Shown piece after piece: positions 42,512-54,164 of a stretch of 64,000 nucleotides of DNA. Source of the DNA: TPA_inf: Saccharomyces (taxonomy: Eukaryota). Numbering within the stretch: position 1 is the stretch's first letter; the number at the start of each line of letters is the position of its first letter. The translations under genes and the position numbers were made by a program. The stretch covers positions 224,001 to 288,000 of the forward strand of contig BK006939.2 of assembly GCA_000146045.2 (NCBI GenBank), read 5' to 3'. The notes beneath the pieces are model-generated. The model was given only the letters and a program-made list of their open reading frames with translations. It ran no database searches and was not told the DNA's origin.

Positions 42512-44113
42512 CTAACGACCGAAGTATTTTAATTCTAAAGGTCTTAAGATGTTGTAGATGATGAAGGCCCAACTTGCACCCAACTCGAACCCAATGTCAC
42601 CACCATATTTACCAATTAAGCGGCCAATTTCACCAACCCAATAGGTTTGACACATACCCAATGCAACACCGAAGGCACCAACAATTAAGGCAGCAGTACC
42701 TGCGATACCGATAGGTAGATGCTCCCAATTATCCCAATCATCAATATTGTAAGCACTGAAGGAACGTCTGTAGAAGAAATGTTCTGAACATGAGATGGCA
42801 ATGTAAATAGCTAAGTAGTAACCGATAGAATCCATGAAATTCTCCATAAAGCCATCAAAGTAATAGGTAGCAGGGATGGAAATACCTAAAGTGGCAGCAT
42901 TACCTGCCATTGTCCAGACTACTCTTGGTATTTTAGCCAAAGGTGCCCACAAAGCTTGAGCGGATAAAGCAACAGTATACATATTTGGAATATTATTTGC
43001 AATAGTGGACAGAGCTAACAAAACGCAGCAGAATTGACCAAATCCGTTCAGAGAGTTAGGAACCAGGATAGCATATATGACACCACCCATAGCATTTTTG
43101 TCATAATATGCCTTCCAGGTTGGGTCATTAAGAGCAGCCATAGCAGAAGCAGCACCAAGAATCATGGTGAAAAATAGAGGGAACGCTAGACCAGCAACTA
43201 GGGAGAAAAAAATCTTGTACTTGTTTGTACTCTTTGGCATATAAACAGTGTAGTCAGCTGCATAGGTCGTCCATCCTGCGGCAAAACCGAAAATAGATGA
43301 ACCAAAAGAAAGAACACTACCTGCAGTAGTTGCACCTCCTACCCATTCACCACCTTTAAACTTTCCTGATCTCGATAGTTGGGCAATAATAACCAAAAAG
43401 ACGGCAAAATTGGGTACCCATGACCATTTCTCGTATGCATGAATGACACTGTAACCAAAAAAAGTCACAAGCACGGTACCACCAATAATGATCAGACAAC
43501 CGGCCCAAATAGGACAGACGTGGCCGGAGCCTTCATTCACCATATTCAGCAGTTGTGCGGATACTGAGGTATTCACAATACCCCAACCGACACAAGCAAT
43601 AACGTTAATAAGAGAGAAAATTCTTGCCGTTACATTACCAACCAGATATCTTGATAAAATCATCTGTCTTAAGCCCAGTTCTGCACCAAAGACAGAAAAG
43701 AACGCAACAAATATCAACCCCATTATATTGAAAAATATGATAACTAAAACACTTTGACCAAAATTTAGACCGAACACCATGGGTCCTAAGGCACCCAAAG
43801 CATATGATGCAATGACCATATTAGCTGAAAACCACATGGACGCAGCATTCAGTATGGAATCGTCCGTTTTTTCATCCTCTGTAACTGGTTCAACACCCTT
43901 TGTTTCTGCATTCAAACTGGCAAAGAACTTATGGAACCACGATAATTTTGTGGCCTCTGATGATTCAACGATATACTGTTGGTCATCTTCGGAAGTTGCT
44001 GTGAAAGTTTCAGAAGCGGCTACCTTCTTTTCGTTTTCCAAGCTTGAGCCTATTACAGGAGATCTCTTCTCCAAGTCTTGGATTTCGTAAACATTATTTC
44101 CCTCTTCCAACAT
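42512..44113 (-). CDS. FCY2: purine-cytosine permease (NCS1 family), 533 aa
   Basis: Twelve-TM NCS1 transporter paralogous to the two ORFs at 50567 and 52572. Motifs GQSVLVIIFFNIMGL and NEGSGHVCPIWAGC are present. Length is 533 aa. Confidence 0.92.
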   Translation of the reverse strand: MLEEGNNVYEIQDLEKRSPVIGSSLENEKKVAASETFTATSEDDQQYIVESSEATKLSWFHKFFASLNAETKGVEPVTEDEKTDDSILNAASMWFSANMVIASYALGALGPMVFGLNFGQSVLVIIFFNIMGLIFVAFFSVFGAELGLRQMILSRYLVGNVTARIFSLINVIACVGWGIVNTSVSAQLLNMVNEGSGHVCPIWAGCLIIIGGTVLVTFFGYSVIHAYEKWSWVPNFAVFLVIIAQLSRSGKFKGGEWVGGATTAGSVLSFGSSIFGFAAGWTTYAADYTVYMPKSTNKYKIFFSLVAGLAFPLFFTMILGAASAMAALNDPTWKAYYDKNAMGGVIYAILVPNSLNGFGQFCCVLLALSTIANNIPNMYTVALSAQALWAPLAKIPRVVWTMAGNAATLGISIPATYYFDGFMENFMDSIGYYLAIYIAISCSEHFFYRRSFSAYNIDDWDNWEHLPIGIAGTAALIVGAFGVALGMCQTYWVGEIGRLIGKYGGDIGFELGASWAFIIYNILRPLELKYFGR

Positions 44114-50566: not shown

Positions 50567-52153
50567 ATGCCTCAAACGCACGAAATGTCCCTGAACGGCA
50601 CTCAATACTTAAAATATGAACTTAAAGACCTTGAGTCTCGAGCTCACGATGCAAAGACTCCTTCAACAAATGAATTCTATGATGATGTAGAATCGCACGG
50701 AACAGAAGAATTAGTTGAAGCTAAACTGTCGTTTTTGAACAGAATTGCTGCTGGTTTAAGTGCCGAGACAAAGGGTATTGAACCGATTACAGAAGATGAA
50801 AAAACTGATGATTCTATACTGAACGCTGCATCTATGTGGTTTTCAGCAAATATGGTTCTGCCTGCTTATGCCATTGGCGCCCTAGGGCCTATGGTGTTTG
50901 ATCTAAATTTCGGCCAAAGCGTTTTCGTTATTATTTTCTTTAACCTCTTAGGCTTGGTATCAGTTGCTTTCTTTTCTGTTTTCGGTGCAGAGCTGGGCCT
51001 AAGACAGATGATTTTGTCTAGATATTTAGTTGGCAATATCGCAGCCAGGATCTTCTCTTTCATCAATTTTATTGCCTGTATCGGTTGGGGTATCGTTAAT
51101 ACCGTAGCAAGCTCGCAAGTCCTGAATATGGTTAACCCCGGTCATCAATGTCCTCTCTGGGCTGGTTGTATAGTTATTATCGGTGCTACTGTAATTGTAA
51201 CTTTTTTCGGCTATGGAGTCATTCATGCTTACGAGAAATGGGCGTGGGTACCAAATTTTGCCGTTTTTTTGGTAATAATTGCTCGTTTGGCAAGGTCTAA
51301 AAAATTTGTCCTTGGGGAGTGGACATCTGGTCCTACTACAGCAGGTAACGTGCTTTCATTTGGATCAACAGTTTATGGGTTTGCTGCAGGCTGGACAACA
51401 TATGCGGCTGACTATACCGTTTATATGCCAAGGAAAACGAACAAGTATAAAATTTTTTTCTCGCTTGTAGTTGGGTTAGCAACACCATTATATTTTACTA
51501 TGATACTTGGTGCAGCTGTAGCAATGGCAGCTATCGGCGATCCAGCCTGGAAGACGTATTATGACGAAAATTCCATAGGTGGTTTAACTTTTGCCGTTCT
51601 TGTCCCTAATTCTGTTCACGGATTCGGTCAGTTCTGTTGCGTGTTATTGTCTCTGTCCACTATCGCTAATAATGTTCCCAACATGTATACTATTGCTTTA
51701 TCGGTGCAAGCCACGTGGGAACCTCTTGCGAAAGTCCCAAGAGTTATTTGGACTTTATTAGGCAATGCGGCCGCACTGGGTATTGCCATTCCTGCCTGCT
51801 ACTATTTTTCTACCTTCATGAATTACTTCATGGATTCCATAGGTTATTATTTGGCTATTTATATTGCCATTGCATGTTCAGAGCATTTTATTTATAGGCG
51901 TTCCTTCAGTGCTTACAATGTTGATGATTGGGATAGTTGGGAACGTCTACCTATCGGCATTGCAGGTACTGCTGCCTTAATTGTTGGTGCCTTTGGCGTA
52001 GCGTTGGGTATGTGCCAAACTTATTGGGTTGGCGAGATCAGCCGTTTGATCGGAGACTACGGTGGTGATATTGGATTCGAGTTAGGACTAAGTTGGGCAT
52101 TTATAGTTTACAACATTGCTAGACCCTTTGAGCTCAAGTACTTTGGTCGTTAA
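50567..52153 (+). CDS. FCY21: purine-cytosine permease paralog (NCS1 family), 528 aa
   Basis: Colinear with FCY2 and FCY22. It carries distinct residues (NPGHQCPLWAGC, FSTFMNYFMDS). Length is 528 aa. Confidence 0.9.
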   Translation: MPQTHEMSLNGTQYLKYELKDLESRAHDAKTPSTNEFYDDVESHGTEELVEAKLSFLNRIAAGLSAETKGIEPITEDEKTDDSILNAASMWFSANMVLPAYAIGALGPMVFDLNFGQSVFVIIFFNLLGLVSVAFFSVFGAELGLRQMILSRYLVGNIAARIFSFINFIACIGWGIVNTVASSQVLNMVNPGHQCPLWAGCIVIIGATVIVTFFGYGVIHAYEKWAWVPNFAVFLVIIARLARSKKFVLGEWTSGPTTAGNVLSFGSTVYGFAAGWTTYAADYTVYMPRKTNKYKIFFSLVVGLATPLYFTMILGAAVAMAAIGDPAWKTYYDENSIGGLTFAVLVPNSVHGFGQFCCVLLSLSTIANNVPNMYTIALSVQATWEPLAKVPRVIWTLLGNAAALGIAIPACYYFSTFMNYFMDSIGYYLAIYIAIACSEHFIYRRSFSAYNVDDWDSWERLPIGIAGTAALIVGAFGVALGMCQTYWVGEISRLIGDYGGDIGFELGLSWAFIVYNIARPFELKYFGR

Positions 52154-52302
52154 CGAAAGTTCATTTAAATGTTTCGCTATTTTAGTCTTTGTAATGTAAC
52201 ATAAATGGCTCTAGTATGCAAATCATTAAAAAATAGCATGTATGTTAATTAAATTATCACGGCTCATTCATTTGAGTTGATAACGCAATTCTGATAAGCA
52301 TA

Positions 52303-52310
52303 TCACGTGA
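52303..52310. promoter_or_regulatory. perfect palindromic E-box TCACGTGA (Cbf1-type) about 265 bp upstream of the FCY22 ATG
   Basis: Read directly within catATCACGTGActg. Confidence 0.45.
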
Positions 52311-52571
52311 CTGTGGTTCTAAGAGTTACTCCGATCGCCAGTAAATACTTTATGAGACGTTGCATTATTTCTGTTTAGTTGATAAATTTTGATTTCTAGT
52401 CTGTTGAAAGCCTAATGCATGCAGATGACATAAATGTAGTCTGTTTTTGCACTGGTGATTTGTAAACCAGACAAATATATAACATGATAACCAAATTGTT
52501 TGTTATAAGATACGCTTGTCAGATTGAAATGGAGGGTGTTTCAGAAGGTGACTAAAATATCGAAGAAAAGT

Positions 52572-54164
52572 ATGCCAGAAAAGTTAGCCATGTCAATGGT
52601 CGATATAAAAGATGCGGGGAGTGAACTAAGGGACCTCGAATCTGGAGCTCTGGACACAAAATCTTCCGCCGCTGATGTATACTATGAGGGTGTAGAATTG
52701 CATAGAACCAACGAATTCATTGATAATAAGCCGTCCTTTTTCAATAGGATTGCAGCTGCTTTAAATGCTGAGACGAAAGGTATTGAACCAGTTACAGAAG
52801 ATGAAAAAAATGATGACTCGATACTCAATGCCGCCACTATATGGTTTTCAGCTAATATGGTGATTGTAGCCTATTCCGTAGGTGCCTTGGGTCCTCTAGT
52901 ATTTGGCCTAAATTTCGGCCAAAGTGTTTTAGTTATCATTTTTTTCAATATTTTGGGTTTGATCCCTGTTGCATTATTCTCACTTTTTGGGGTAGAACTG
53001 GGCCTAAGACAGATGATTCTATCGAGATATTTGGCTGGTAACATCACAGCAAGATTTTTCTCTCTTGTTAATGTCATTGCTTGTGTCGGTTGGTGTGTTT
53101 TAAATATTTCTGTTTCTGCTCAACTTTTGAATATGGTGAATGAAGGCTCTGGGCACAACTGTCCTATTTGGGCAGGTTGTTTGATTATTGCTGGTGGTAC
53201 CGTGCTTGTGACTTTTTTTGGTTACAGTGTCGTTCATGCATACGAAAAATGGTCGTGGGTACCCAATTTTGCTGCCTTTTTGGTCATTATTGCCCAACTA
53301 TCGAGATCAGGAAAATTTAAAGGTGGTGAATGGGTAGGGGGTGCAACTACTGCAGGTGGTGTTCTTTCTTTTGGTTCATCTGTTTTTGGGTCAGCTGCGG
53401 GTTGGGCGACTTATGCAGCAGATTACACTGTTTATATGCCAAAGACCACAAGTAAATACAAAATTTTTTTTTCCGTAGTAGCCGGTCTAGCGTTCCCTCT
53501 ATTTTTCACCATGATTCTTGGTGCTGCTTGCGGTATGGCGGCCCTTAATGACCCAACCTGGAAGTCATATTATGATAAAAACGCCATGGGTGGTGTCATA
53601 TATGCTATCCTGGTCCCTAACTCTCTAAACGGATTCGGTCAATTCTGCTGTGTTTTGTTGGCTCTTTCAACTGTTGCTAATAATGTCCCTGGAATGTACA
53701 CTGTCGCTTTATCCGCTCAAGCTTTGTGGGCACCTTTGGCTAAAATACCAAGAGTAGTCTGGACAATGGCAGGTAATGCTGCCACTTTAGGTATTTCCAT
53801 CCCTGCTACCTATTACTTTGACGGCTTTATGGAGAATTTTATGGATTCCATTGGTTATTATTTGGCTATTTATATTGCCATTGCATGTTCAGAGCATTTT
53901 ATTTATAGGCGTTCCTTCAGTGCTTACAATATTGATGATTGGGATAATTGGGAGCATCTACCTATCGGTATCGCAGGTACTGCTGCCTTAATTGCTGGTG
54001 CCTTTGGAGTAGCGTTGGGTATGTGCCAAACTTATTGGGTTGGTGAGATCAGTCGTTTGATCGGAGAGTACGGCGGTGACATTGGGTTCGAGTTAGGCGG
54101 AAGTTGGGCGTTCATCATCTATAACATTGTAAGACCTTTAGAACTCAAATATTTCGGTCGATGA
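52572..54164 (+). CDS. FCY22: purine-cytosine permease paralog (NCS1 family), 530 aa from the ATG at 52572
   Basis: The protein is overall closest to FCY2 (GQSVLVIIFFNILGL, NEGSGHNCPIWAGC, FDGFMENFMDS). Its last ~290 nt of DNA are almost identical to FCY21. Confidence 0.9.
   Translation: MPEKLAMSMVDIKDAGSELRDLESGALDTKSSAADVYYEGVELHRTNEFIDNKPSFFNRIAAALNAETKGIEPVTEDEKNDDSILNAATIWFSANMVIVAYSVGALGPLVFGLNFGQSVLVIIFFNILGLIPVALFSLFGVELGLRQMILSRYLAGNITARFFSLVNVIACVGWCVLNISVSAQLLNMVNEGSGHNCPIWAGCLIIAGGTVLVTFFGYSVVHAYEKWSWVPNFAAFLVIIAQLSRSGKFKGGEWVGGATTAGGVLSFGSSVFGSAAGWATYAADYTVYMPKTTSKYKIFFSVVAGLAFPLFFTMILGAACGMAALNDPTWKSYYDKNAMGGVIYAILVPNSLNGFGQFCCVLLALSTVANNVPGMYTVALSAQALWAPLAKIPRVVWTMAGNAATLGISIPATYYFDGFMENFMDSIGYYLAIYIAIACSEHFIYRRSFSAYNIDDWDNWEHLPIGIAGTAALIAGAFGVALGMCQTYWVGEISRLIGEYGGDIGFELGGSWAFIIYNIVRPLELKYFGR

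Follow-up and report, generated by a model that had tools for sequence, protein, structure and literature searches.

Did two tandem permease genes of Saccharomyces cerevisiae acquire their almost identical 3' ends by copying of DNA from one gene into the other, or have these ends been kept alike by selection? The question is raised by FCY21 and FCY22, which lie in a 64,000-nucleotide (nt) stretch of S. cerevisiae chromosome V (GenBank contig BK006939.2, positions 224,001 to 288,000; this whole stretch is called the window, and coordinates refer to it) together with FCY2, a third paralog whose orientation is inverted relative to the other two. An initial annotation, made from the sequence alone, had proposed an ectopic gene conversion between the tandem copies on the grounds of a sharp border and of synonymous-site identity. 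That signature was upheld: the near-identical segment is very probably the product of non-allelic (ectopic) gene conversion, and appears to be one patch of a continuing exchange in which all three genes take part.

Identity, boundaries and fine mosaic of the tract

The gene identities and their order were as the initial annotation had given them, and the three genes of the window were compared on a codon alignment:

42512-44113, minus strand: FCY2 (YER056C), purine-cytosine permease; 533-residue open reading frame (ORF) identical to the S288C Fcy2 protein; PF02133, E=1.5e-118
50567-52153, plus strand: FCY21 (YER060W), upstream tandem member; 528-residue ORF, representative of the S. cerevisiae Fcy21p cluster; PF02133
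52572-54164, plus strand: FCY22 (YER060W-A), downstream tandem member; 530-residue product from the ATG at 52572, identical to the S288C Fcy22 protein; PF02133

All three proteins are full-length matches to the NCS1 purine-cytosine permease family Pfam PF02133 (397-401 bits, curated cut-off 23.5). The mechanical ORF list opens FCY22 at a TTG (52524) instead of at the ATG of the annotated protein, which affects only the quoted coordinates. Overall nucleotide identity is 74.3% between FCY21 and FCY22, 81.6% between FCY2 and FCY22 and 72.8% between FCY2 and FCY21.

A jump to near-identity does occur at the motif ATGGATTCCAT, which is found exactly twice, at 51830 in FCY21 and at 53841 in FCY22: identity between these two genes is 67% in the 132 nt upstream (89/132), 94.8% in the tract and 76% in the last 93 nt (71/93). 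The FCY21 position first proposed for the motif, 51841, was wrong by 11 nt; pairing it literally with 53841 gives 33 of 91 identical positions instead of the claimed 90, and the proper pairing gives 89 of 91. Identity of about 93%, said to extend over a further ~190 nt, holds for the following 140 nt (130/140, 93%) and is 89% (169/190) over 190 nt, and the tract ends about 30 codons upstream of the stop codon rather than about 20. Similarly, the pair used as a control for identity elsewhere (50895-50975 and 52885-52965) was misregistered by 15 nt and matches at only 27 of 81 positions, although the value of about 75% itself stood once the control was aligned (61/81). The tract, its boundary and its constituent parts are the following:

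53841-54071, plus strand: whole tract (parts A, B and C), FCY22 side; 219/231 positions (94.8%) identical to FCY21
51830-52060, plus strand: whole tract, FCY21 side; 219/231 positions identical to FCY22 53841-54071
42605-42835, minus strand: equivalent segment of FCY2; in S288C, parts A and C unconverted, part B identical to FCY22
53820-53840 (FCY21 51809-51829), plus strand: 5' tract boundary; 11 mismatches in 21 nt, FCY22 reading FDGFMEN and FCY21 FSTFMNY
53706-53821 (FCY2 42855-42970), plus strand: block identical in FCY2 and FCY22; 116 nt, 100%, 35 consecutive matching polymorphic sites, p<=1e-4
53841-53930 (FCY21 51830-51919), plus strand: part A, FCY21/FCY22 conversion; one mismatch in 90 nt
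53910-53994 (FCY2 42682-42766), plus strand: part B, identical in FCY2 and FCY22 over 85 nt; interrupts the FCY21/FCY22 tract
53996-54066 (FCY21 51985-52055), plus strand: part C, FCY21/FCY22 conversion; bootstrap 0.99 for the pairing of the two S. cerevisiae genes

The longest exact run shared by FCY21 and FCY22 in the tract is 78 nt (53853-53930). The synonymous substitution rate (dS, Nei-Gojobori) between the two genes is above 1 or saturated elsewhere and 0.06-0.22 within the tract, so that the uniform dS named beforehand as an argument against conversion was not found. In a permutation test on 524 polymorphic columns, the longest run of matching polymorphic sites, 12, was never reproduced in 10,000 shuffles (p<=1e-4). 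The tract is therefore real and chance is excluded. Homology between FCY21 and FCY22 runs from near codon 17 to 12 nt beyond the stop codon and thus leaves out promoter and terminator. The motifs named in the initial annotation, FDGFMENFMDS versus FSTFMNYFMDS and ACSEHFIYRR versus SCSEHFFYRR, are present as described, and the paralog-specific boundary codons (FDGFMEN/FSTFMNY) are kept in all species compared and in all of the 30-odd S. cerevisiae alleles checked.

For comparison, the syntenic loci of five further species were used, with all three genes from S. kudriavzevii, S. uvarum and S. mikatae, FCY2 and FCY22 from S. arboricola, and FCY2 and FCY21 from S. eubayanus (16 Saccharomyces sequences overall), and regional neighbour-joining trees with bootstrap were computed. 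When each variable site was classed by the paralog that FCY22 matches, FCY22 was found to have an FCY21-like N-terminal tail, an FCY2-like body (~52900-53837) whose similarity to FCY2 rises steadily, a patchwork 3' end and a mixed final tail. The 116-nt identical block (53706-53821), over which FCY2 and FCY22 of S. cerevisiae are paired (bootstrap 1.0), is the most recent portion of an extended FCY2-like region (53192-53837). In part A it is FCY21 and FCY22 of S. cerevisiae that pair with bootstrap 1.0, and they have in common derived synonymous states seen in no other sequence. The clean two-gene tract first described was not recovered, since in part B FCY21 differs from FCY22 at six inner sites (53931-53972) at which FCY22 matches FCY2. 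From this pattern of sites, at least three exchanges involving all three genes appear in the last 460 nt.

Age of the genes and origin of the FCY22 5' end

The regional trees differ along the genes. In the 52722-52900 tree the sequences fall into three clean orthology clades (bootstrap 0.92-1.0), and all three genes are therefore older than the genus. In the middle of the gene FCY21 still forms a clean clade and FCY2 and FCY22 pair by species. In the 53841-54071 tree the sequences group by species: bootstrap is 0.99 for the three S. uvarum paralogs, 1.0 for FCY21 with FCY22 of S. cerevisiae and 0.88 for a group of all six sequences from S. cerevisiae and S. mikatae. When genes of other genera were added as outgroups, FCY21 was placed beside FCY21-like genes of other genera over residues 200-420, and all 16 Saccharomyces sequences fell into one tight clade over residues 424-500. 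Some residues are confined to one species and common to all its paralogs, such as YISI in S. uvarum and FFYRR in S. mikatae.

The order of the FCY genes, which in the window lie in the series HIS1, FCY2, HMF1, PET117, PCL6, FCY21, FCY22, CEM1 and GPP2, is kept in every species compared. The ratio of nonsynonymous to synonymous substitution (dN/dS) among orthologs is 0.03-0.06 across the three genes, all of which are under strong purifying selection; with a value of 0.06, FCY22 is a functional mosaic paralog and not a pseudogene. In S. arboricola H-6, degenerate pieces of FCY21 with 36-64% amino-acid identity lie between PCL6 and an intact FCY22 (L013:3206-3660), and FCY21 appears to have been lost there. 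In S. uvarum (L003, aligned to 52767-52992), FCY2 and FCY21 are 86-96% identical in the region of transmembrane helices (TM) 1-3, with a proportion of synonymous differences (pS) of 0.31; the corresponding values are 0.51 in S. eubayanus and ~0.6 in other species. FCY2 and FCY21 may therefore have undergone a conversion of their own at the 5' end in the S. uvarum lineage.

The initial annotation had spoken of mosaic ends, and a recent conversion at the 5' end of FCY22 was considered as well. It was rejected, since the similarity of the FCY21 and FCY22 N-terminal tails is equal across species combinations (identity 0.61-0.73 for every one of them). An alternative is that FCY22 was born as a chimera of a gene of FCY21 type and one of FCY2 type, at a duplication junction or by unequal crossover, and that its mosaic ends are relics of this birth. 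The FCY21-like tail is found in all five species that have FCY22, without any clustering by species, and FCY2-type and FCY21-type tails both occur in other genera; these points speak for such an origin. It would cover the 5' end only, however: the 3' ends of the paralogs cluster species by species, and the S. cerevisiae genes FCY21 and FCY22 differ from each other by a pS of 0.14 but from their S. mikatae orthologs by 0.5-0.6, which implies an exchange far younger than the genes. We regard a chimeric birth as evenly balanced between right and wrong. The 5' mosaic end reflects ancient shared ancestry, possibly dating from the origin of FCY22 beside FCY21.

The tail of FCY22 (52572-52760) differs between species in another respect: S. 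mikatae, S. kudriavzevii, S. arboricola and S. uvarum share a GTDE-V-KLES-like repeat of ~13 residues that S. cerevisiae lacks. Nucleotide identity between orthologs in the N-terminal tail is 64-74% for FCY22, which is evolving fast, versus 74-94% for FCY21.

Direction of copying and variation among strains

The only paralog-diagnostic residue of the tract is the serine of GEISRLIG (codon 54051-54053). At this position FCY22 orthologs have serine (alanine in S. arboricola), and all FCY2 and all other FCY21 orthologs have glycine. Because S. cerevisiae FCY21 carries the FCY22-specific serine, part C (53996-54066) was most likely copied from FCY22 into FCY21, the opposite of the direction implied by the initial annotation. 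Part A contains no diagnostic site, and either order of events fits part B. The residues ACSEHFIYRR, taken at first as being of FCY21 type, are shared by all three paralogs in S. kudriavzevii, S. uvarum and S. eubayanus, and the serine of SCSEHFFYRR in S. cerevisiae FCY2 is a change of that gene alone.

The locus was then read in other strains. In six strains with the common FCY22 allele the tract is base-for-base that of S288C, without a single variant. Two divergent wild strains, with chromosome-level assemblies from independent projects, are referred to as L017 (GCA_903819205, gene names EM14S01-3B) and L018 (GCA_903819125, HN1); their flanks diverge from S288C by 1.8% and 0.9%, respectively. 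Parts A and C are present in both, and part C also in S288C and in a further strain, L044, in which FCY22 is of FCY2 type over 53822-53909 and part A is thereby erased. The sites of part B switch together in FCY2 and FCY22 of L017 and L018. In L018, all three genes have the FCY21-type base at all six of these sites, giving a continuous FCY21/FCY22 tract (225/231). In L017, FCY2 and FCY22 have it at five of the six, the S288C base being kept at 53956. FCY2 of L017 has in addition gained sequence of FCY21/FCY22 type at 53849-53906 and of FCY22 type at 54095-54129, so that its tract segment is largely of FCY21/FCY22 type (216/231 versus FCY21).

Most differences of FCY2 from S288C in these two strains are equal to the base of a paralog (23 of 26 in L018 and 41 of 49 in L017, 85% together), whereas random mutation would yield at most ~17% (p<1e-14). 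FCY21 of the same strains shows only 1-11 differences, mostly private. The apparent diversity between strains is 1.6-3.1% for FCY2 versus 0.06-0.7% for FCY21.

A survey of about 30 S. cerevisiae protein alleles gave a similar picture. The border residues, FMNYFMDS in FCY21 and FMENFMDS in FCY2 and FCY22, are invariant; whether strains share the tract boundary had been left as a check, and at the 5' border they do. The part B segment of FCY22 occurs as NIDDWDNWEHL, as NVDDWDSWERL and as recombinants of both. One FCY22 allele has the FCY2-type SCSEHFF, and several FCY21 alleles have FCY22-type tails.

Crossover products exist as well. In GCA_029990335.1 (L043:3001-4587) a single FCY21::FCY22 hybrid gene is followed directly by CEM1. 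It corresponds to window positions 50567-52042 joined to 54068-54164, a 2,011-bp deletion by unequal crossover, with the crossover between FCY22 positions 54053 and 54068, within part C. The hybrid protein (P0137) was found on 6 contigs, and the FCY21 alleles P0139, P0144 and P0146, with FCY22-type tails and other junctions, may be further hybrids. In the window, FCY21, FCY22 and their 418-nt spacer are intact, and no single-hybrid product of non-allelic homologous recombination (NAHR) is present there. The S288C arrangement is one haplotype among several, and non-crossover and crossover outcomes are both natural.

These observations bear on the simplest reading of the tract, that a single very recent conversion of FCY22 by FCY21 in the S. 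cerevisiae lineage explains everything. The 78-nt exact match, the 89 of 91 identical positions at the start of the tract and the continuous tract of L018 are what such an event would leave. It is nevertheless very unlikely: an FCY2-type patch lies within the S288C tract, the serine of part C implies the opposite direction, dS is unequal among the parts (0.06 versus 0.16-0.22), and the different patches carried by different strains call for at least three or four events. The word recent, used in the initial annotation, thus held in part. The S. cerevisiae events followed the split from S. mikatae, which is a loose bracket, with parts A and C older than the divergence of the sampled strains and part B variable among them.

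Three side observations concern the same assemblies. In GCA_000977085.2 (L009:996-2582), a TA to AT change in FCY21 (window 51448-51449) turns TAT AAA into TAA TAA at codons 294-295; this is a natural null allele, and no gene is called there. In population assemblies the tandem pair is annotated as a single spliced gene of 1066 residues (P0123, P0129, P0131-P0134 and P0141, 1055-1066 residues), but in L017, L018 and L044 (9001-12598 in each) two intact ORFs and a normal spacer lie beneath the fused model. These entries look like merged gene models, and they draw FCY2, FCY21 and FCY22 into shared 90% protein clusters. Finally, an S. eubayanus-like metagenome scaffold (ERZ28621719, L016:4024-5610) carries PET117, PCL6, FCY21 joined to an FCY2-type 3' end, and HIS1, with one clean switch within a 66-nt stretch that is identical in S. 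eubayanus FCY21 and FCY2. Either the inverted paralogs crossed over and thereby inverted ~8 kb, or the assembler made a false join across this repeat.

Conversion, constraint and the evolution of the FCY genes

A high identity of paralogs may also be maintained without any exchange, by purifying selection on the nucleotide sequence itself, acting on codon usage, RNA structure or an embedded element. The encoded segment is highly conserved, and identity is raised in this same 3' segment in all paralog pairs of all four three-gene species (0.79-0.97, windows 53847 to 54027). The recurrence of the high-identity block across species had been named in advance as evidence against conversion; it is literally found in four species, yet conversion is not refuted, because the block was homogenised independently in each of them. 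Between species, orthologs have a pS of 0.60 in the tract, compared with 0.55 in the TM1-3 region and 0.51 in the middle of the gene, so that the synonymous conservation among orthologs expected from constraint is not seen. Within species, paralogs have a mean pS of 0.39 in the tract (0.14 for S. cerevisiae FCY21/FCY22, 0.25-0.33 in S. uvarum, 0.30-0.39 in S. mikatae, 0.40 for S. arboricola FCY2/FCY22 and 0.51-0.59 in S. kudriavzevii). Moreover, the synonymous states common to S. cerevisiae FCY21 and FCY22 occur in none of the 14 other sequences, and the clustering is by species. The dS along the genes is strongly non-uniform. Codon constraint is thus excluded as the source of the pattern, and we consider this explanation highly improbable. 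The comparisons are best described as concerted evolution by recurrent conversion. An artefact of assembly or collapse of near-identical paralogs has a negligible probability: although repeats of 66-116 nt can mislead assemblers and the metagenome scaffold above joins FCY21 to an FCY2 3' end across 66 identical nt, six other strains have the S288C tract base-for-base, two further independent chromosome-level assemblies have parts A and C, and the gene order is the same in all species.

Several points weigh against ectopic conversion as set out here, or limit its detail. Recent homogenisation is slight in S. kudriavzevii (pS 0.51-0.59), and the process is therefore not uniform across the genus. 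S. paradoxus, from which the S. cerevisiae event could be dated, lies outside the sample; among the members listed for three protein clusters only S. cerevisiae and S. pastorianus are represented, and a metagenome scan gave only identical S. cerevisiae loci or distant yeasts. The sub-tracts are short (65-90 nt), their trees are based on few sites, and few nodes are well supported. The donor is deduced from one diagnostic residue in part C, and part A has none. In the assemblies behind some of the variable patches, paralog reads mis-mapped during polishing could mimic conversion; several strain alleles, however, are seen again in numerous independent assemblies (16 and 6 contigs). The fixed 5' boundary may reflect selection or a mismatch barrier.

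Break repair by strand invasion, mismatch-dependent rejection of heteroduplex and patchy mismatch correction are established features of homologous recombination. Along these lines, we infer that a break or lesion in one copy would be repaired on a paralog template 2 kb away, with ~80-230 nt being copied and the number of genes unchanged. The invading strand would form heteroduplex with the paralog, which would be rejected where mismatches are dense and corrected in patches elsewhere. Resolution without crossover would leave patches, and the hybrid deletion FCY21::FCY22 would result from crossover. The exchange between the three genes homogenises their last ~230-320 nt, which encode the final predicted transmembrane helices plus the tail, in each Saccharomyces lineage examined. 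At the conserved cliff between FSTFMNY and FDGFMEN, dense mismatches, selection or both would block further spread; downstream of it the proteins are nearly alike, and conversions would be close to neutral. Each conversion would also restore perfect matches of 78-116 nt and thereby favour the next exchange.

FCY22-specific residues such as VPG (53685-53705) are kept in FCY22 orthologs, and residues of this type are absent from the four FCY2 alleles read as DNA (S288C, L017, L018 and L044). This fits a role of selection in limiting where conversions survive, because laboratory conversions over the VPG patch inactivate FCY2 (PMC3409178). Natural exchange seems to be filtered where FCY22-specific residues would enter FCY2.

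Exchange within this family has been documented under laboratory selection. Under 5-fluorocytosine, FCY22, there termed a pseudogene, was found to convert FCY2, and such events made up 47.5% of the mutations in late-arising resistant clones (Quinto-Alemany et al. 2012, PMC3409178). The conversions lay mostly at nt ~900-1143 of FCY2, many ended at nt 1143, and no FCY21 events were reported. Family and locus are the same as here, the patches are likewise short and non-reciprocal, between paralogs 8.5 kb apart, and the end points fall at high identity, nt 1143 lying immediately ahead of the block of 116 identical nt. Those conversions arose under laboratory selection for FCY2 inactivation, whereas the present tract is natural, apparently neutral, shared by FCY21 and FCY22 and located at the 3' end. 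When cells were evolved experimentally under nitrogen limitation (Hays et al. 2023, PMC10218751), both FCY21 and FCY22 donated sequence to FCY2, and conversion recurred independently; the recipient was again FCY2, with adaptive loss-of-function alleles, and that work contains no FCY21-FCY22 exchange and no comparison of natural strains or species. FCY21/FCY22 is also, like ENA1/ENA2 and PHO3/PHO5, a pair of NAHR breakpoints for copy-number change in sgs1-deleted cells (bioRxiv 10.1101/119677). The L043 hybrid, with its junction in the tract, is a crossover product of this kind, unlike the window, in which both genes are intact and conversion would have been of the non-crossover type.

Among yeast duplicates, pairs such as SSB1/SSB2 and the ribosomal-protein genes evolve in concert by interlocus conversion, with selection preserving paralog-specific sites. 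The FCY genes resemble them in grouping by species, in sharp borders at functionally diverged residues and in a low dS of the tract. They differ in being three, two in tandem and one inverted, in the short and patchy tracts and in the visible variation among strains. In the literature that we searched, which did not extend to genome-wide surveys in subscription journals (e.g. GENECONV screens of yeast families), neither the natural FCY21/FCY22 tract nor the genus-wide pattern was found to be described. The FCY tract is a new and well-documented instance of a familiar process, and the understanding of the conversion mechanism is unchanged by it.

For the FCY family, the consequence is that whole-gene trees will mislead. 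Most of the single-nucleotide polymorphisms that appear to distinguish FCY2 between strains are copies from paralogs and not new mutations; such copying inflates the apparent diversity of FCY2 and can confuse short-read variant calling. FCY2 is the 5-fluorocytosine uptake gene, and the exchange behind the laboratory resistance alleles evidently also occurs in nature. A more far-reaching reading, which we consider unlikely, is that the 3' FCY module is a genus-wide conversion hotspot with a 5' border held by selection, in which TM11-12 and the tail co-evolve in three transporters. It would supply most of the natural variation of FCY2 and seed the 2-kb FCY21::FCY22 hybrid deletion and possibly the ~8-kb FCY2/FCY21 inversion; the paralogs would serve as a standing library of donors, and homogenisation might itself be favoured, for example through a shared trafficking partner. 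If this were true, the uptake of nucleobases or of 5-fluorocytosine could be altered in one step in nature.

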